A DNA stretch of 64,000 nt from Gammaproteobacteria bacterium (GTDB lineage Bacteria > Pseudomonadota > Gammaproteobacteria > Steroidobacterales > Rariloculaceae): positions 10,957 through 74,956 of the forward strand of contig DASQOL010000146.1 in NCBI GenBank assembly GCA_035644475.1. Reading direction: 5' to 3'. The position numbers and the translations under genes are program-made. The notes beneath the pieces are model-generated. The model saw only the letters and a program-made list of their open reading frames with translations. It made no database searches and was not told where the DNA came from. Shown here in pieces: positions 6,457 through 63,824 of this stretch (within the stretch, counting starts at the first letter, position 1; every line of letters begins with the position of its first letter).

Positions 6457-6492
6457 CCTTTCAGCATTCCTTTTTTCATCGTTCCCCCTTCA

Positions 6493-7500
6493 TCATTCCC
6501 CCTTCATCATTCGATACACGACGGCCATCTGCACCACCATGCGGTTGCGCGCCTCCGGGATCACAATGCTGCGCGGGCCGTCCAAGATGCGGTCCGCGAC
6601 CACGACGCCGCGGCGCACCGGCAGGCAGTGCATGAACTTACAATCCGCTCGTGCGTTGGAGAACCACGGCTCGTCGACGCACCAGGTGCCGACGAGCTCC
6701 TCGCGCAGCGCCTGATCGCCGAGCTTGTCGCCGTAGTGGCGCGTGGACGAATACGACTTCGCGTAGATCACGTGCGCCCCTTCCATCGCTTCGCGCCGGT
6801 CGGTCGTCTCGCGCACGCTGCCCCCGGACTCCGCCGCGGCCTTGCGCGCTCGCTCCATGATCGCGGGCGGCAGCTCGAAGCCGGGCGGCCGGAGATGCAC
6901 CACGTCCATGCCACGCTTCGCGGCCATGTGGATCGTCGCCGCCGGCACCGCGAGCGGCAAGGCTTTCGGATGATACGCCCACGACAGCACGAACTTGCCC
7001 TTGTTGGCGGGGATTGCCATGTCGTCGAGCGTTTTCCAGTCGGCGAGGCTCTGGCACGGATGGTCGATCGCCGACTCCATGTTGATCCACGGTTTGTCGA
7101 TCAGCGAGGTCAGTGCCTGGAAGTCCTTGTCGGCCAAGTCGTGCGCGAGGTCGCGGCGCTCGGCGAACGCGCGCACGCCCATCGCGTCGCCGTACGACGC
7201 GATCACCGGGATCGCCTCGCGCACGTGCTCGGCGGCCATGCCGTCCATCACGATGCCGTAGCGCGACTCGAGGCCGTGGATCGACATCTCCGGCGAGATC
7301 ACGAACGCGCCGCCGCCGAGCCGGATCATTGCCGCCTGGAACGACGACAGCGTGCGCAGCGACGGGCTCAGGAACAGCAACGACAGCACCTTGCCCTCGA
7401 GCGCGCGCGGCTCGGGATGTTTGTCGAGCCTCGCGGCGAGCGCGATGAGGTTGTGAATCTCCTCGCGCGAGAAGTCGGCGAGATCGTTAAAGTGGCGCAT
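6493..7500 (-). CDS. argF': N-acyl-L-ornithine carbamoyltransferase (AOTC/SOTC type, not canonical OTC)
   Basis: 335 aa. It has SPSLRT in place of STRTR, plus HPCQSLAD, SWAYHPKALP and HCLPVRR. It has no DxxxSMG ornithine loop. By hand it aligns along its whole length with my recollection of the Xanthomonas AOTC. Confidence 0.85.
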   Translation of the reverse strand: MRHFNDLADFSREEIHNLIALAARLDKHPEPRALEGKVLSLLFLSPSLRTLSSFQAAMIRLGGGAFVISPEMSIHGLESRYGIVMDGMAAEHVREAIPVIASYGDAMGVRAFAERRDLAHDLADKDFQALTSLIDKPWINMESAIDHPCQSLADWKTLDDMAIPANKGKFVLSWAYHPKALPLAVPAATIHMAAKRGMDVVHLRPPGFELPPAIMERARKAAAESGGSVRETTDRREAMEGAHVIYAKSYSSTRHYGDKLGDQALREELVGTWCVDEPWFSNARADCKFMHCLPVRRGVVVADRILDGPRSIVIPEARNRMVVQMAVVYRMMKGE

Positions 7501-8683
7501 CGGTCAAGTCCTCCAGGGCGGCGGCCAGTGTCTGCACGTGCTCGGTTGTAAGGATCAACGGCGGCAGCAACCGCAGCACGTGCGGGTCGGCGCTGGTGCC
7601 GGTCAAGATGTCGCGGTCGAGCAGCGCGTCGCGAACCGCCGCGGCCTTGGGCCTAGTGCGGAGCCCGACGAGGAAGCCCTTGCCCTGCACGCCCACGACC
7701 GGACCGACGACGCACTTCGCGCGGATCGCGGCATGCGTCTCGCGGACGTTCGCGAGCAGGTTCTCGCTGCGGATCGCCTCGATGACGGTCTTGATCGCCG
7801 CGCAAGCCACCGGTCCGCCGCCGAACGTCGTGCCGAGCGCGCCGGCCTTGAGCGACTTCGCGATCTCGTGCGGCAGCAGCACCGCACCGCATGGAAAGCC
7901 GCCGCCGAGCCCCTTTGCGACCGTGAGCAGGTCGGGGCGCACCTTGTAGAGCTGCGCGCCGAAGGGCTCGCCGAGCCTGCCCATCCCGGTCTGCACCTCG
8001 TCCAGGATCAGGAGCGCGCCCGCGCGGTCGCAGGCCGCGCGGGCCGCGTGCAGGAACTCCGGCGCGAAATCGAACGCGCCGGCGAGGCCTTGCACCGGCT
8101 CGACGATGACGCCGGCGGTGCTCGAGTCGACGGCTGCATTGAGCGCGGCGATGTCGTTGCGCGGCACGAACTGCACATCGAACGGCGTGCGCGGGAAGCC
8201 GTACCACGACTCCTTCGCGCCCCAGGTAACCGCCGACGCGGCCGCGGTGCGGCCGTGGAAGCTCTGCTCCATCGCGACGATCTTCGCGCGGCCCGTGAGC
8301 TTGAGCGCGAGCCTTAGCGCGTTCTCGTTGGCCTCGGCGCCGCTGTTGATGAAGAACACCTTGTCGAGCCCCGGCGGGCCGAAGGCGGCCAAAGCTTCGG
8401 CGGCTTCGTCGCGCACGCGAAGCGGCAGCGCGTTCGTCTGGAACACGAGCTCGCGGCTCGCGCGCGCCAGCGTCTCCGACAACTTTGGATGGCCGTAGCC
8501 GAGCGCAGCGACCGCGTGTCCGCCGTAGAAGTCGAGCACCCTGCGACCCGCCGCGTCCTCGAGATAGACGCCCTGCCCGCGGACGGGCGTGAACGGCAAC
8601 AGCGAGTAGACCTCGTTCAAGTGTGCCGCGGAGTCCGACCCCTGGGGGTCTGCCCCTATTTTCATGACCTTCATCAGAGCCAT
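7487..8683 (-). CDS. argD: acetyl/succinyl-ornithine aminotransferase
   Basis: Class III PLP aminotransferase with FINSGAEANE, LILDEVQTGMGRLG and TVAKGLGGG. The start is ambiguous: ATG at 8683, 8674 or 8665. The 3' end overlaps the argF' start by 14 nt. Confidence 0.9.
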   Translation of the reverse strand: MALMKVMKIGADPQGSDSAAHLNEVYSLLPFTPVRGQGVYLEDAAGRRVLDFYGGHAVAALGYGHPKLSETLARASRELVFQTNALPLRVRDEAAEALAAFGPPGLDKVFFINSGAEANENALRLALKLTGRAKIVAMEQSFHGRTAAASAVTWGAKESWYGFPRTPFDVQFVPRNDIAALNAAVDSSTAGVIVEPVQGLAGAFDFAPEFLHAARAACDRAGALLILDEVQTGMGRLGEPFGAQLYKVRPDLLTVAKGLGGGFPCGAVLLPHEIAKSLKAGALGTTFGGGPVACAAIKTVIEAIRSENLLANVRETHAAIRAKCVVGPVVGVQGKGFLVGLRTRPKAAAVRDALLDRDILTGTSADPHVLRLLPPLILTTEHVQTLAAALEDLTDAPL

Positions 8684-58015: not shown

Positions 58016-59380
58016 CTAGGCGGCTTCGGGGAGGCGGTCGAGCGGGAACTTCAGCACCACCTCGAGTCCGCCGTCCGGCCTGTTGAGCGCGCGGACGCTG
58101 CCGTGGTGCAGCTCGGTCACGCGTGCGGTGATCGCGAGCCCGATGCCTTGGCCGTCCTGCCTGTGGTCGCGACTCTGGTCGGTGCGGTAGAACGGCTCGA
58201 AGATCTTCGCGAGGTCCTCGGGCGCGACGCCCGGGCCGCGGTCGAGCACCCGCACGGCCGCCTCGCCCGCCTTCGCCTCGAGGCGCACCTCGATCAGCTG
58301 CGCCGGATCGGAGTAGATCAGCGCGTTGCGCACCACGTTCTCGACGGCGCTCTTCAGGCCGTCGGGGTCGCCGAGCAAGCTCACCTCGCCGCTCGTGGAG
58401 TACTCCACCTTCGTTTTCGGATGCTCGTAGCGTGCGTCGTCGACGACTTCGGCGACCAGCGTGTCGAGCCGCACGACGTCGCGGCGCGGCTCGGTGGCCG
58501 TCCGCAGCCGCGTAAGCGTCATGACTTGGCCCACGAGCGCGTCCAGCCGCTCCGCTTCGCGCTCGATGCGCTCGAGATCGGGCTGCGCGGCTTGGTTGGC
58601 GCGGCGCTGGGCGAGCGCCAGCGCCATGCGGATGCGCGCGAGCGGCGAGCGCAGCTCGTGCGAGACATCTCGTAGCAAGGTTTCCTTGTCGGTCACGAGC
58701 GCCTGGATCCGCTCGGCCATCTTGTCGAAGTCGCGGGCGAGCCTGCCGACCTCGTCCTTGCGCCGCGTGAACGGCTGCCCCACGCGCGCGTCGAGCGCGC
58801 CGGCGGCGAGCGCGAGGCTCGCCTTCTGGAGCCGCGCGATCGGCGAGGAGAGATAGCGGGCGAGCAGCAGCGCCATCAAGGCCGTCGCCAAGACTGCGAT
58901 GCTGATGACGGCGAAGGGCGTGCCCGGCCACGTCAGCAGGCCCAAGAACGTGGACGGTGCCCGCGCGAACAGCAGCCGGTATTCCTCGTCGTTGGGTCCG
59001 ATCAGCGTAGAGGTCAGCTGCATCGGCCGCAGGTTCGACGGCGGCGGCGACGATTGCGGGCGGAACGGCCGCGTCCTGAGCAGCTGGAAGAGCTCGCGCG
59101 GCATCGCGCGGCCGAGCAGCTCGTCGCCGCGCTCGTTCATGACATACAGAACGATGCCCGGGGCGATGCGCAGGTGATTGTTGAGCCAGATCTTGAGCCC
59201 GCGCTCGCCGCCGTGAGACAAGGCCGCGGCCGCCTCATCGGTGATCTTCGCGCGGCCTTCGACGTTGAGGGCCTGATCGAACAGCTGGTTGGCCAGGCGG
59301 AAGCTCACGTACACGGTGCCTACGAGCGTCACGGTCATCGCGACCATGAACGACATGAAGATCTTCCAGAAGAGACCCAC
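58016..59380 (-). CDS. cpxA: CpxA-like sensor histidine kinase
   Basis: 454 aa with two TM segments and a HAMP domain. H-box SHELRSPL, LERIEREAERLD, and a C-terminal FYRTD..RD as in E. coli CpxA. Confidence 0.7.
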   Translation of the reverse strand: MGLFWKIFMSFMVAMTVTLVGTVYVSFRLANQLFDQALNVEGRAKITDEAAAALSHGGERGLKIWLNNHLRIAPGIVLYVMNERGDELLGRAMPRELFQLLRTRPFRPQSSPPPSNLRPMQLTSTLIGPNDEEYRLLFARAPSTFLGLLTWPGTPFAVISIAVLATALMALLLARYLSSPIARLQKASLALAAGALDARVGQPFTRRKDEVGRLARDFDKMAERIQALVTDKETLLRDVSHELRSPLARIRMALALAQRRANQAAQPDLERIEREAERLDALVGQVMTLTRLRTATEPRRDVVRLDTLVAEVVDDARYEHPKTKVEYSTSGEVSLLGDPDGLKSAVENVVRNALIYSDPAQLIEVRLEAKAGEAAVRVLDRGPGVAPEDLAKIFEPFYRTDQSRDHRQDGQGIGLAITARVTELHHGSVRALNRPDGGLEVVLKFPLDRLPEAA

Positions 59381-59382
59381 GG

Positions 59383-60081
59383 CTATCCCCCCGGAGGCAC
59401 GAGCACGTAGCCGCTGCCGCGGATGCTGCGGATCACGACGTCGTCCTGCTCTTCACCGCCCACCTTCCGGCGCAGGTTGCTGATGTGCGTGTCGAGGCTC
59501 CGGTCGTCGGGCAGCAGCTGCCGCCCGAGCGCCGTGCGCGTCAGCGACTCGCGCGACACGACCTCGCCGGGTGCGCGCATCAGGGTCACGAGGATCACGA
59601 ACTCCGCGTTCGTGAGCTTGAGCGGCTCGTCGGCGAGCCACGCTTCGCGGCGCGGCAGGTTTGCGCGCAACTTGCCGACGGTGATCTCGGCCACTTCGTC
59701 CGTCGCCGGCTCGGTGGTTCGGCGCAGGATCGCCTTCACGCGCGCCAGCAACTCGCGCGGGTTGAACGGCTTCGACAGGTAGTCGTCGGCGCCGAGGTCG
59801 AGGCCCACGATTCGATCGACGTCGTCGCCGCGCGCCGTGAGCATGAGCACGGGCGTGCGCGAGCCCGACTCCCGCAGCTGTTTGAGCACGTCGAATCCTG
59901 AGAGTCCGGGCAGCATGACGTCCAATACGATGAGGTCGTAGTTCTCGCGCTGGGCGCTCCGCAAGCCCTGAACGCCGGTGGCGACCGTGGTCAGCTCGAT
60001 GCCTTCCGGCGCGAGGTACTCGACGAGCATCTCCGCGAGACGCTGGTCGTCGTCGATGATCAACAGCCGATGCTCTGCCAC
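59383..60081 (-). CDS. cpxR: CpxR-like OmpR-family response regulator
   Basis: 232 aa. Motifs LLIIDDD, MLTARGDDVDRIVGLDLGADDYLSKPFNPREL and DTHISNLRRK are closely parallel to E. coli CpxR. Confidence 0.7.
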   Translation of the reverse strand: MAEHRLLIIDDDQRLAEMLVEYLAPEGIELTTVATGVQGLRSAQRENYDLIVLDVMLPGLSGFDVLKQLRESGSRTPVLMLTARGDDVDRIVGLDLGADDYLSKPFNPRELLARVKAILRRTTEPATDEVAEITVGKLRANLPRREAWLADEPLKLTNAEFVILVTLMRAPGEVVSRESLTRTALGRQLLPDDRSLDTHISNLRRKVGGEEQDDVVIRSIRGSGYVLVPPGG

Positions 60082-60214
60082 GTCCTGCCCCTCGCGCCTC
60101 GGAAAAGTGCCACAAAAGCTCGGCGAGCCAAAGTGTTGCGCCGATACCCTGACAAATATTGAGACTAACCGCCGAGATCAGCCGGTCGAGAGTAACCGCA
60201 TAAGCCCGCCGCGG

Positions 60215-61318
60215 CTATGACCACAGACCGAGCTGGCCGCCCGGCGCCGCCGGCCTTCGAAACAGGCTCGTGTTCAAGCTCGTCTCCCGGTCGAGACCGT
60301 GCGTGCGCCGCGCCCGCTCGAAGCGCGCCCGCAGCAGCTGCGCGAATGGTCCCGCGCCCCGCTGGCGGTTGTGAAAGGTCGAGTCGTAGAGCGCGCCGCC
60401 GTGCATCTGCCGGATCAGGCTCAAGACGTGCTCCGCGCGGTCCGGATAGTGCTCGCGGAGCCACTCCTCGAACAACGCCTTGACCTCGTGCGGCAGCCGG
60501 AGGAGCACGTAGCCCGCGGAGCGCGCTCCGCACTCGGCGGCCCGCTCGAGGATCGCCTCGAGCTCGTGATCGTTGAGAGCGGGGATCATGGGGGCGGCCA
60601 TGACGCCCGTCGGTACGCCGTGCGCCGACAGCTCGCGGAGCACGTGCAGTCTCTCCTTCGGGCCGGCGGTCCGCGGCTCGAGGCGCCGCTTGAGCTCGTC
60701 GTCGAGCGTGGTCACGCTGACATAGACCGCGGCAAGCCCGTGGGCGGCGAGCTTCTCGAGCAAGTCGAGGTCGCGGAGCACGGCGCCGCTTTTCGTCACG
60801 ATCGTGAGCGGATGCCTGAGCTCGAGCAGCAGCTCGAGGATGCCGCGCGTTAGCCCAAGCCTGCGCTCCACCGGCTGATACGGATCCGTGTTCGTGCCGA
60901 GCGCGATCGGGCTCACCAAGTAGTCGGGCCGCGCGAGCTCGGCTGCGAGAAGCTCGACAGCGTTCGGCTTGTAGTAGATCTGCGTCTCGAAGTCGCGCCC
61001 CGGCGAAAGATCGAGATAGGCGTGCGTCGTTCGCGCGTAGCAGTAGACGCAGCCGTGCTCGCAGCCGCGGTACGGATTGATCGATTGGCTGAACGGGAGG
61101 TCGGGCGACGCGTTGCGCGCGATGATCGTGCGCGCGTTGTCGACGTGCAGCTCGGTGCGCGGCGCGGCGGGCGCCTCGCCGTCGAGCGCGTCGGTGCACG
61201 CCGTCTCGGCGTCGAGCTCGGTTGTGTGGCGCGCGAACCGTCCCTCGCGATTCGACAGCGCGCCGCGACCTTTGGTCTTGATCGGTTGCCTCGTGGGTGT
61301 GACGCGCCGCACGCTCAT
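60215..61318 (-). CDS. PA0069-family radical SAM protein (SplB-like)
   Basis: 367 aa. Motifs KGRGALSNREGRF and the CEHGCVYCYA radical SAM cluster. Confidence 0.85.
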   Translation of the reverse strand: MSVRRVTPTRQPIKTKGRGALSNREGRFARHTTELDAETACTDALDGEAPAAPRTELHVDNARTIIARNASPDLPFSQSINPYRGCEHGCVYCYARTTHAYLDLSPGRDFETQIYYKPNAVELLAAELARPDYLVSPIALGTNTDPYQPVERRLGLTRGILELLLELRHPLTIVTKSGAVLRDLDLLEKLAAHGLAAVYVSVTTLDDELKRRLEPRTAGPKERLHVLRELSAHGVPTGVMAAPMIPALNDHELEAILERAAECGARSAGYVLLRLPHEVKALFEEWLREHYPDRAEHVLSLIRQMHGGALYDSTFHNRQRGAGPFAQLLRARFERARRTHGLDRETSLNTSLFRRPAAPGGQLGLWS

Positions 61319-61425
61319 AGCTTGACATAAACGGCGCGCGCGATGGGCGCCCCGTCAACGCGCTGGCGCTCGCGCCGTTGTGTATCTCGAACTCAACGAA
61401 TCATGGTCCGGGAGGCCAAACGAAC

Positions 61426-61788
61426 ATGAAACGGGATGCGCTTCTGATCAGCCTCGCCTTATTGGTTTCCACGACGCAGGTTTGGGCCGACGCCTCGGAC
61501 CGCACCGACGGCCGCGGCGACCGCATCGAGCGTCGCCTCGACAATCGCGGCGACCGTATCGACAACCACCTCGACCGCCGCGGCGACCGCGCCGACCGGC
61601 GCTTCGACCGCGCGTCGGATCGCGCCGCGGCAACGGGCCACGACGTCGCGGCCGCCCGCCTCGACGCGCGCGGCGATCGCATCGACTCGCGGCTCGACCG
61701 CCGCGGTGATCGCATCGACAACCACCTCGACCGTCGCGGCCGGGAGATCGACCGGCGGATGGATCGACGGGCCACGCGTCGCGGCTGA
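61426..61788 (+). CDS. secreted 11-residue-repeat, Arg/Asp-rich protein
   Basis: GGGAGG Shine-Dalgarno and signal peptide MKRDALLISLALLVSTTQVWA. About seven hendecad units follow, of the type xRGDRIDxxLD. Confidence 0.7.
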   Translation: MKRDALLISLALLVSTTQVWADASDRTDGRGDRIERRLDNRGDRIDNHLDRRGDRADRRFDRASDRAAATGHDVAAARLDARGDRIDSRLDRRGDRIDNHLDRRGREIDRRMDRRATRRG

Positions 61789-61847
61789 CCGCTGCGCGCT
61801 AGCAGCACCGGCCGCGTGGGCCAAGCGCCCCGCTGCCGGTTCCTTTT

Positions 61848-63824
61848 TCAGCCGGCGCGACGGCGGCGTCGCGCACCCGCAGCCGCGGCGAGCGCGAGCA
61901 ACGCCAACCATGACAGCGTGCCACCGCCGCCGGAAGAGGGCGGCGCGCTCACGCTGACGGCGATCGCCAAGTTGTTGTCGGCCGGATTGCTGTCGGAGTC
62001 CCCGGACGACGCGGTTACCGACACCTGCTGCGCGCCCGCGGCGACGCCGGTGAGTGTGAGCGTGAGCACGATGCGGCCGCGCGGCGAGAGTGCTTGCGGC
62101 GCACACGTCACCAATTGCCCTGCGATCGTACACGCCCCGCCCGCGAGCGTGGCCTGGTCGGCCCGGAGGCCTGAGCTCAGCGTCGCGACGAGCGCGACGC
62201 CGGTGGCGGCGAAGTCGCCGTGGTTCTCGACGTTCGCGACGACCGTGAGCTGCGCGTTGGCTTGCCCGCTGGCCGGGTCCGCGGAGAGCGCGACGTCGAC
62301 GATCGGCAGCACGCTGACGACGTCGGCGAGCGAGTCGTTGGCGTTCGCGCGGTCGTCGGGCGAAGTCGCCGCCGCGCTCACCGTGTAGTCGCCGGGTGTG
62401 TCCGCCCGCAGCGGCACGGTGATTTGCCGCCCGGCGCCGCCCGCGACCTCGCCCAAGTCGCAATCGATGCGTTGGCCACGCGCCGTGCAGCCCTGCGGCG
62501 CGGCGCCTACACCCAGGCCATCGGCGAGCTCAACGGTGAGCCGGCTGGCCGTAGCCGGCTCCGAGCCAAGATTGGCCACGGCGAGGACGTAATCGAAAGG
62601 CGCGCCCGCGGGAACGTGTTGCCGCGGCTGCGGCGTAGTCAGCTCGAGGTCGGGTCTGACGATCGGCGTAAGGCACGCCGCCGTCGCGATCTTCGTCCGC
62701 ATCTGCGCCAGGCTGCAGTCCGAGAACCTGTCCGAGCCGTTGATGGTCGGCGCCATCAGGAAGGTGGAGGGCGTGGTCTCGCACACGGATCCCGCCTGCG
62801 CGTCGTGCGGCGCACCGAACGTGTGACCGATCTCGTGCGCGGCGATGAGGCTGTCCATGGTCGGCCCACGCCGCGCTTCGCTCAGGCCGGAGGCAAAGCT
62901 CCGATGCAGAGCGTCGGACGGGCTGCGTTTTCCGCAGACGCCGCCCATGAACGCGATTCCGGCGGTCGTACCGTCGAGGTTTCTGCCGGTGAACAGGTGC
63001 GTGAGGCCGAGCGCGTCCTGCTCGGGCGTCGCGCCGCGGTGCGCGGCGACCTCGTCCAGCAAGCCGTTGGCGCTCGTCTTCGTGAATGGGTCCGAGTCGT
63101 CGGTGAACACGTCGACCCTGGCCGCCGTGATCTGCACGCCCACCTGCTCGCTGAATATGCCGTCGACGTTGTTGATTCGGGTGAGCAGCGCGCTCGACGC
63201 GGCCGGCCCGAAGTTGGTGCTGAACTCGAAGTCCGCGATCACGCCGATGTCGAGATTGCGGGCCGCGCTTTGCTGCGCGAGCGGCTCGAGCTCGGCCGCC
63301 AGCATCGCGAGCGCCGTGCCCGCGTCCATGCGAGGCTCTCCCGTGGCGCAGGTCACGGCGCCCGGGTCGAGATAGACGTCCGCGAGTCGGTAGATCGTGG
63401 GCTGCGACCGCCCGCCGGAGTCCACCGCGCTGTCGTCCGCGCGCTCGAGCGCGTAGATCTCGGAGCCGTCGGCGATCAGTCCGGCCGGACCGGCCGGCGT
63501 CAGCACGATCCGCGCCCACGAGTTCTCGTGCCCGGCGACCTTGCCGCGAAAAGCGGCAACGCCCGCTGCGCGCCCGAGACGGGTGACGAACGGCTCGAGG
63601 CGGGCGTTCGGCTCGAGCACCACGACGAACTCGCGGCCGAGCGCAACGAAGCTCAGATCGACGATTCCGGGGGTCGTGGCCTTGGCCGCCGCTGCGCCGA
63701 CGCGCGCTTCCACGGCATAGTCTCGTATCGGTTCGGAGTATTGGACGGCGACACCGTCGGCCGCCGCGACGATCCCCGGGGCGGCACACCACAATACGGC
63801 AAGCGACGGTGCAAGTCTCGCCAT
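61848..63824 (-). CDS. reprolysin/M12B-like zinc metalloprotease with repeat domains and GlyGly-CTERM sorting signal
   Basis: 658 aa. It has a signal peptide and the metzincin motif HEIGHTFGAPHD. C-terminal Ig-like repeats follow. The tail GGGGTLSWLALLALAAAAGARRRRRAG ends the protein. Confidence 0.85.
   Translation of the reverse strand: MARLAPSLAVLWCAAPGIVAAADGVAVQYSEPIRDYAVEARVGAAAAKATTPGIVDLSFVALGREFVVVLEPNARLEPFVTRLGRAAGVAAFRGKVAGHENSWARIVLTPAGPAGLIADGSEIYALERADDSAVDSGGRSQPTIYRLADVYLDPGAVTCATGEPRMDAGTALAMLAAELEPLAQQSAARNLDIGVIADFEFSTNFGPAASSALLTRINNVDGIFSEQVGVQITAARVDVFTDDSDPFTKTSANGLLDEVAAHRGATPEQDALGLTHLFTGRNLDGTTAGIAFMGGVCGKRSPSDALHRSFASGLSEARRGPTMDSLIAAHEIGHTFGAPHDAQAGSVCETTPSTFLMAPTINGSDRFSDCSLAQMRTKIATAACLTPIVRPDLELTTPQPRQHVPAGAPFDYVLAVANLGSEPATASRLTVELADGLGVGAAPQGCTARGQRIDCDLGEVAGGAGRQITVPLRADTPGDYTVSAAATSPDDRANANDSLADVVSVLPIVDVALSADPASGQANAQLTVVANVENHGDFAATGVALVATLSSGLRADQATLAGGACTIAGQLVTCAPQALSPRGRIVLTLTLTGVAAGAQQVSVTASSGDSDSNPADNNLAIAVSVSAPPSSGGGGTLSWLALLALAAAAGARRRRRAG

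Follow-up and report, generated by a model that had tools for sequence, protein, structure and literature searches.

The hendecad gene and its locus

The window, the whole 64,000-nucleotide stretch of DNA that was analysed, contains a small forward-strand gene whose product is built of 11-residue repeats (hendecads). The gene, its signals and its neighbours are listed in Table 1. The translation is exactly the protein described in the first-pass annotation of this DNA, with all six hendecads listed there, and the 33-bp period claimed for the underlying DNA is recovered by Tandem Repeats Finder as arrays at 61506-61611 and 61659-61740. The divergent intergenic region also holds a genus-conserved element at 61322-61330, TTGACATAA (TTTACATAAG in relatives), which adjoins the start codon of the radical-SAM (rSAM) gene. 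An Rfam search gave nothing above noise.

Table 1. Features of the hendecad gene and its flanks, in window positions
Feature	Position	Strand	Remarks
Radical-SAM protein (PA0069 family), OmpR-type regulator, histidine kinase	58016-61318	-	apparent operon; upstream, divergent; genus-wide trio
-35 element GTCAAC	61354..61359	+	motif kept across the family; equals the SigAb -35
-10 element CGTT(GT), here CGTTGT	61376..61381	+	16-nt spacer from the -35; 44 nt 5' of the ATG
Shine-Dalgarno GGGAGG	61410..61415	+	10 nt 5' of the ATG; read from sequence
Whole coding sequence	61426..61788	+	120 codons plus TGA; 120-aa product; single copy in the genome; dN/dS 0.20-0.34
Signal peptide (predicted), residues 1-21	61426..61488	+	MKRDALLISLALLVSTTQVWA: MKR, hydrophobic core, VWA, then DA
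N-terminal arm, three hendecads G31-A63	61516..61614	+	repeat arrays; helix 30-70 in the AlphaFold2 model
Central linker S64-R82	61615..61671	+	Gly71(-His72) is the predicted turn; G71 in at least 90% of homologues
C-terminal arm, three hendecads G83-R115	61672..61770	+	repeat arrays; helix 73-119 in the AlphaFold2 model
M12B/reprolysin-like protease, 658 aa	61848-63824	-	two DUF11 domains, weak GlyGly/MYXO-CTERM-like tail; downstream, convergent

It could be argued that the frame is no gene at all, since high-GC DNA yields long ORFs in many frames and an antisense ORF (61401..61808) with a like third-position GC bias might be the true one. The third-position GC content (GC3) of the hendecad ORF is 0.84, compared with 0.87-0.92 in the neighbouring genes, but GC3 alone is unable to pick the strand because the antisense ORF has its third positions in common with the hendecad ORF. 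The forward frame is settled by three observations: i) the signal peptide; ii) at least 296 homologues of like architecture; and iii) a dN/dS of 0.20-0.34 against four orthologues from the same genus. The antisense translation is a run of Arg, Ser and Pro for which no homologues of its own were found. A Shine-Dalgarno sequence and a conserved promoter are present as well, and hundreds of like-built homologues occur in Beta- and Gammaproteobacteria, Nitrospirota and Nitrospinota. The homologues, their conserved architecture, the dN/dS and 757 cluster representatives found in a profile search (below) effectively refute the non-gene reading, to which we assign a negligible probability. The ORF is a real gene for a small, putatively exported hendecad protein.

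Protein architecture and repeats

The precursor starts with MKRDALLISLALLVSTTQVWA, followed by the predicted cleavage site, DASDRTD and the hendecads GRGDRIERRLD, NRGDRIDNHLD and RRGDRADRRFD. After this first arm come the linker RASDRAAATGHDVAAARLDA, the repeats RGDRIDSRLD, RRGDRIDNHLD and RRGREIDRRMD, and the terminal RRATRRG. The signal peptide, assessed by eye, consists of an MKR n-region, the hydrophobic core ALLISLALLVSTT and V-W-A followed by D, a cleavage site of the AXA type. Of 51 aligned homologues, at least 90% retain the n-h-c layout and the Ala at -1. The secretion predicted in the first-pass annotation thus agrees with a Sec-type signal peptide whose layout is conserved in the family.

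The hendecads occupy G31-R41, G42-R52, G53-A63, G83-R93, G94-R104 and G105-R115. They are split into two blocks around a conserved 19-residue linker (R-A-x-x-A-x-x-x-G-H-x-x-x-A-x-R-L-D), a feature absent from the first-pass annotation. Its description of an extremely charged protein made almost wholly of hendecads was accurate: the 99-aa mature protein contains 30 Arg and 22 Asp along with the six repeats, and has a pI of 11.3 and a net charge of +6.

The unit consensus, built from 250 units in 51 proteins, is G (100%), D (69%), R (86%), I (76%), D/E (79%), x, R (89%), L (80%), D (96%), R (56%), R/K (82%). G1, I4 and L8 recur with a 3-4-4 spacing, as do the a/d/h core positions of hendecad coiled coils. 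Asp occurs at three of the eleven positions, spaced i, i+3, i+7. Since residues of like charge stack on a helix when placed at i+3 and i+4, D2, D5 and D9 would fall on one stripe and R3, R7, R10 and R11 on an arc. The protein is unusually regular, with a Gly/Ile/Leu core and separate Asp and Arg stripes. His is frequent at the variable unit positions 6, 7 and 10 and in the central Gly-His, and is conserved at no repeat position; Cys and Met are almost absent from the protein.

Predicted structure

AlphaFold2, run with a 51-sequence alignment, gave a model with a mean pLDDT of 81.7 and a pTM of 0.50 in which helices span residues 30-70 and 73-119 and are interrupted at G71-H72. A helical hendecad protein, as first proposed from the repeat period, is well supported by these two long helices. 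The arm lengths on either side of the linker are correlated across 167 family members (Spearman 0.32, p = 2e-5). A tandem-duplicated natural member, modelled by AlphaFold2 from its single sequence without an alignment, came out as one continuous long helix, which gave no view of how hairpins might pack. The conserved turn and the correlated arm lengths support a two-helix hairpin, which is the likely fold; it is not secure because of the pTM of 0.50 and the continuous helix of the tandem member.

Foldseek against the PDB returned only generic helical hairpins (best E 1.0), and a sequence-profile search of the PDB returned nothing relevant. CpxP, Spy, ZraP and CnrX were absent from the best 50 Foldseek matches and from the PDB profile search at E <= 10.

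Family and distribution

No Pfam or NCBIfam family model exists for the hendecad protein. The top Pfam match, Apolipoprotein (PF01442), scores 16.6 bits where the cut-off is 90, and LEA models are absent from the matches listed. A word-indexed search found at least 296 relatives of like architecture, all "hypothetical" bar one: homologue P0115, 1 of 120 among the matches listed, bears the JGI name "Ni/Co efflux regulator RcnB". The window protein matches no RcnB family model in Pfam or NCBIfam. When 1.84 billion cluster representatives were searched exhaustively with a profile, 757 matched at E <= 1e-3, of which 380 also matched at E <= 1e-10. A literature search on the repeat peptide and on DUF3619 and DUF3106 found nothing relevant. 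The earlier statement that no function could be named for this protein is borne out by the missing models and the unnamed relatives, and the family is undescribed and without a curated model.

Members occur in Lysobacteraceae (Arenimonas, Lysobacter helvus), Woeseiaceae, Methylophilaceae, Thiotrichales, Pseudomonadales metagenome-assembled genomes (MAGs), Nitrospiraceae and Nitrospinaceae. Their architecture is constant: a signal peptide, 2-6 hendecads, a Gly linker (usually Gly-His) and 2-5 further hendecads. The gene is patchily distributed, being present in 15 of 41 relatives and in 8 of 22 high-quality genomes. The first-pass annotation had held that absence from close relatives would speak against it. 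Such absence is literally found (14 of 22 genus genomes), yet it is no argument against function because the pattern is a clean presence/absence polymorphism, with purifying selection wherever the gene is present.

Several family loci have peculiarities of their own. The whole two-arm unit is naturally duplicated in tandem at L006:6001-6804 and in protein P0122, and the L006 member ends in a His-rich tail, HLHKHKKPVHRHVNH. Locus L028 (G010:C3, from a 57%-complete MAG) has frame breaks in the hendecad, rSAM, regulator and kinase genes, which are more likely assembly errors than pseudogenes, and the hendecad matches of G058 and G191 each carry one in-frame stop. At locus L030 (G026:C28), a gene at 6598-7116 of the reverse-complemented locus encodes a 172-aa exported protein beside a CpxR-like regulator, ~1.5 kb from the hendecad gene of that genome; it has an LDLAPEQ-type motif and is CpxP/Spy-like by eye.

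A predicted SigAb-type promoter

The 220 nt upstream of 22 family members were aligned by eye and then searched by pattern. All but one of them (21 of 22) carry G[TA][CA]AAC-N16/17-CGTT at a distance of 59-78 nt (in one case 122 nt) from the start codon. With L014, a 23rd member that belongs to a different genus of the same family and has its motif at -63, the total is 22 of 23. The 22 members come from different families and classes, and their relatedness is ignored in the following statistics: mononucleotide shuffles gave 0.024 expected matches, reverse complements gave 0, and other windows of the loci gave 3 in 1119. A sigma-70-like promoter was not found in 61250-61950.

The promoter of the Acinetobacter baumannii extracytoplasmic-function (ECF) sigma factor SigAb has been defined by saturation mutagenesis and ChIP-seq as a -35 GTCAAC and a -10 CGTT separated by a 16-17 nt spacer (Bacon et al., mBio 2025, PMC12153292; preprint PMC11257525). 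The putative hendecad promoter is identical to it in the -35, the -10 and the spacer range. The consistent tie of the hendecad family to a SigAb-type promoter, as read from these upstream regions, appears to be new. This promoter and the linkage to an ECF operon (below), together the most informative feature of the gene, are absent from the first-pass annotation.

The strict form, GTCAAC-N16/17-CGTTGT, occurs at only three sites in the 5.1-Mb genome: the hendecad promoter, the promoter of an ECF sigma operon on contig C54, and a site on contig C9. The C9 site lies within the first codons of a PRC-barrel gene and was discarded as a chance match. Looser sites (GTCAAC-N16/17-CGTT) occur on the minus strand of C123 (~3829), C41 (~19406) and C11 (~49940). 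The genes downstream of them encode a 146-aa secreted Ala/Pro-rich protein, a 629-aa lipoprotein and a 725-aa acyltransferase-like protein, and, going by the motif, are possible further regulon members.

The ECF sigma operon

The C54 operon (6484-8348, minus strand) adjoins priA and is without a hendecad gene. It consists of an ECF sigma gene (7719-8348, minus strand), a gene for a 141-aa transmembrane (TM) protein and a DUF3106 gene, and is preceded by TGTCAACC-N16-CGTTGT. The sigma factor matches NCBIfam NF006550 with 225 bits against a cut-off of 173. Pfam DUF3619 has no match in this genome, nor in any control genome.

In L127, a low-GC locus from 251 Pseudomonadales genomes searched with the ECF alignment, the ECF gene is grouped with genes for a TM protein of 106 aa and a periplasmic protein of 135 aa. 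The promoter in front of them is GTCAACC-N17-CGTT, and its spacer includes a TTTT run, in agreement with the published PsigAb (17-nt spacer with a TTTT run; PMC12153292). L127 is Acinetobacter calcoaceticus, and a scan of named contigs showed 94-98% identical copies across the calcoaceticus-baumannii complex. A full-length comparison of the C54 sigma factor with that of A. calcoaceticus gives 35% identity (E 2e-38), and the C54 DUF3106 protein matches the Acinetobacter AabB-like protein with an E of 5e-10, whereas the anti-sigmas of the two genomes have only a short acidic C-terminal EDLEML-type motif in common. These matches to the A. calcoaceticus sigAb-like operon suggest that the C54 module is homologous to SigAb-AabA-AabB. 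The same three kinds of gene make up both modules: the ECF sigma is accompanied by a small anti-sigma that crosses the membrane once and by a helical protein of the DUF3106 type in the periplasm.

SigAb is copper-responsive and required for tolerance of this metal; its direct regulon is small, consisting of sigAb, relA and the sRNA sabS (PMC12153292). The regulon in this genome appears similarly small. The SigAb direct regulon contains no hendecad protein, a point against the reading proposed below.

The hendecad gene is found directly upstream, and on the same strand, of an operon for an ECF sigma, a small one-TM protein and a DUF3106 protein in Arenimonas, Lysobacter helvus, a Lysobacteraceae MAG, an unrelated metagenome contig, Methylophilaceae and another gammaproteobacterial MAG; in a Pseudomonadales MAG it lies within 2 kb of the ECF operon. 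Scanning named genomes with an alignment of the ECF yielded 80 independently fetched loci; 71 have the motif upstream, and 8, including Nitrospiraceae and Nitrospinaceae, have the hendecad gene directly upstream of the sigma gene. At 7 of those 8 loci the motif precedes the hendecad gene, and at none is it located between the hendecad and ECF genes. By this arrangement, the hendecad gene in these lineages is the putative first gene of an autoregulated operon; relocated elsewhere, as it seems to be in the window genome, it carries its own predicted promoter copy.

The two genes also co-occur. Of 41 relatives, 36 have the ECF gene, and the 15 with the hendecad gene are all among these 36 (Fisher p = 0.09); among 251 Pseudomonadales genomes the ECF gene is present in 14 of the 15 hendecad-positive genomes versus 41 of the 236 others (Fisher p = 1.8e-9), both p values ignoring phylogenetic relatedness. 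The hendecad gene is immediately upstream of the sigma gene in 9 of these 15 Pseudomonadales and within ~2 kb of it in 3 more. Many ECF-positive genomes are without it (21 of 36 relatives and 41 of 55 Pseudomonadales). The one Acinetobacter genome in the sample, that of A. calcoaceticus (G281), has the sigma factor and no member of the hendecad family.

SigAb has been described as Acinetobacter-specific (PMC12153292). That claim looks too narrow: the sequence matches point to SigAb-like modules with the same promoter that are widespread outside Acinetobacter, in many orders, a distribution that appears to be new.

Proposed role of the hendecad protein

With moderate confidence, we regard the hendecad gene as encoding a small periplasmic protein that is most likely a dedicated output of a SigAb-type ECF sigma factor. 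Given that the family almost always carries the SigAb-type promoter, the protein probably serves this stress pathway as an output and does not act together with the adjacent protease. In the proposed model, envelope or metal stress would free the C54-encoded sigma factor, with the C54 anti-sigma and periplasmic DUF3106 protein acting as counterparts of AabA and AabB. RNA polymerase with that sigma would initiate at GTCAAC-N16-CGTTGT (61354-61381), ~40 nt upstream of the ATG, and the product would be exported by Sec and cut after VWA. The mature protein may then form long helices with a narrow core, to which every hendecad supplies G(a)-I(d)-L(h) and which is bordered by the Asp stripe and the Arg arc; an antiparallel two-helix hairpin, turning at the conserved Gly-His, is the best model. 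The Arg-rich surface might bind anionic envelope material, unfolded proteins or metal ions. In this scheme, in which sigma dependence, export, the hairpin and the biochemical activity are all putative, the stress-induced protein may also feed back on its pathway. The absence of the gene from more than half of the sigma-bearing genomes would make the protein an accessory effector, outside the signalling core. Feedback is possible and is not needed for signalling. The roles in desiccation, ion stress and metal or polyanion binding suggested in the first-pass annotation are speculative.

Alternative roles

The gene could instead be tied to its local neighbours, as a CpxP-like partner of the rSAM/CpxR-/CpxA-like operon or as a substrate or partner of the protease. 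The best NCBIfam matches of the kinase are two CpxA models (4e-85 and 4e-73; the next is at ~1e-47), which are matched over the full length and below their curated cut-offs, and the hendecad gene is divergent from the operon, as cpxP is from cpxRA. Synteny in the genus runs [two paralogous secreted-protein genes]-[hendecad]-[rSAM]-[RR]-[HK]-...-[glnK], RR and HK being the regulator and the kinase. However, four genus members (G021, G009, G018 and G008) keep rSAM-RR-HK and the flanking gene and have a short spacer in place of the hendecad gene. The flanking and rSAM genes are direct neighbours there, and the spacer that separates them is free of the promoter motif. In G026, from another family of the same order, the hendecad gene also lies within ~2 kb of the orthologous regulator pair. 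The four genomes without the gene and the proximity kept in G026 together suggest that this location is old, with repeated loss. Outside this order the neighbours of the hendecad gene differ, and its only recognisable promoter is of the ECF type. The role of a CpxP-like partner was downgraded on account of the four genomes that keep the operon, and the link to a Cpx-like system is at best weak. The protease link raised in the first-pass annotation is not supported, because among the genus loci carrying the hendecad gene the protease is found in two only, those of the window genome and G007; in G016, G003, G017 and G010 the hendecad gene abuts the next gene directly. The protease is thus a lineage-specific, presence/absence insertion, and partnership with it was rejected. 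Taken as a whole, a function tied to the local neighbours is improbable.

Two other roles can be envisaged within the ECF pathway. The hendecad protein might be a periplasmic co-regulator, with either the DUF3106 (AabB-like) protein or the tail that the anti-sigma extends into the periplasm as its binding partner. Its gene stands first in the sigma/anti-sigma/DUF3106 operon of many lineages, a position where pathway modulators are often encoded, and feedback has precedents in CpxP acting on CpxA and RseB on RseA. Like AabB/DUF3106, the protein is helical and predicted to be periplasmic. On the other hand, the gene is missing from most ECF-bearing genomes, as counted above, and the Acinetobacter pathway works without a hendecad protein (PMC12153292). 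Nor is there profile similarity to DUF3106, and kinship to DUF3106/AabB was rejected at an hhalign probability of 10%. We therefore consider a co-regulator unlikely. The protein might also be a periplasmic metal (copper) buffer whose Asp stripes and scattered His bind Cu(II) or other divalent cations under the metal stress that activates SigAb-type sigmas, which would fit the copper response of SigAb and the requirement for SigAb in copper tolerance (PMC12153292). The Asp spacing, the His at positions 6, 7 and 10 and in Gly-His, the one member with a His-rich tail and the one named after RcnB point the same way. The protein, however, is almost devoid of Cys and Met, which usually serve as Cu(I) ligands in the periplasm, and has no repeat position with a conserved His. 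In addition, the net charge is strongly positive, and no RcnB or other metal-binding family model matches. Metal buffering is possible though weakly supported, and this reading is, in our estimate, quite unlikely. The reading that we prefer remains that of a dedicated output of the SigAb-type sigma factor.

Relation to known systems

CpxP, Spy, ZraP and CnrX are small exported all-helical proteins of the hairpin type that are induced by an envelope- or metal-stress regulator and are often encoded beside it; CpxP is basic and is dispensable in many species. By analogy with CpxP, Spy and ZraP, the hendecad protein would be a periplasmic stress protein: it too is small, putatively exported, helical, basic (as CpxP), putatively stress-regulated, often encoded beside the regulator and dispensable in many species, a likeness drawn from general knowledge and the AlphaFold2 model. 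The differences are equally clear. The hendecad protein is under the predicted control of an ECF sigma instead of a two-component system and is built of exact 11-residue repeats; the hooked-hairpin or cradle fold of the CpxP/Spy/ZraP family was not recovered by Foldseek against the PDB. The LTXXQ/Metal_resist HMMs gave no match at E <= 0.1 in Pfam or NCBIfam. Membership of the CpxP/Spy/ZraP family was rejected, there being no LTXXQ motif in the sequence, no HMM match and no fold match. The analogy extends to location, regulation and general shape only, because no structural or sequence similarity was found.

With group 3 LEA proteins, apolipoproteins A and E and alpha-synuclein, the hendecad protein has in common the 11-residue period, the helical character and the high charge. 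It differs from these families in several respects: i) its hydrophobic face consists of Gly, Ile and Leu only and is narrower than a lipid-binding face; ii) it is Arg/Asp-rich and not Lys/Glu/Ala-rich; and iii) it is bacterial and, as predicted, periplasmic, with a fixed two-arm architecture and a conserved turn. Membership of the Apolipoprotein A1/A4/E or LEA families was rejected on the sub-threshold PF01442 score and the lack of an LEA match.

Implications

An ECF sigma that drives a small periplasmic protein is a regulatory logic of a known kind. The hendecad design could interest researchers working on coiled coils and on periplasmic chaperones. The joining of an uncharacterised family to a stress regulator with an experimentally defined promoter leads to a directly testable hypothesis. 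Homologues of SigAb-AabA-AabB are indicated in many bacterial orders, with like promoter specificity and a different conserved output outside Acinetobacter. A broader proposal, which we put forward tentatively and at less than even chances, is that the SigAb pathway is a widespread module for envelope or metal stress in Gamma- and Betaproteobacteria, Nitrospirota and Nitrospinota, and that the hendecad protein is its recurrent, often its only, protein output outside Acinetobacter. If this is true, the hendecad protein would be a periplasmic stress effector (a chaperone, a polyanion or metal binder, possibly a feedback modulator) that arose independently of CpxP and Spy.
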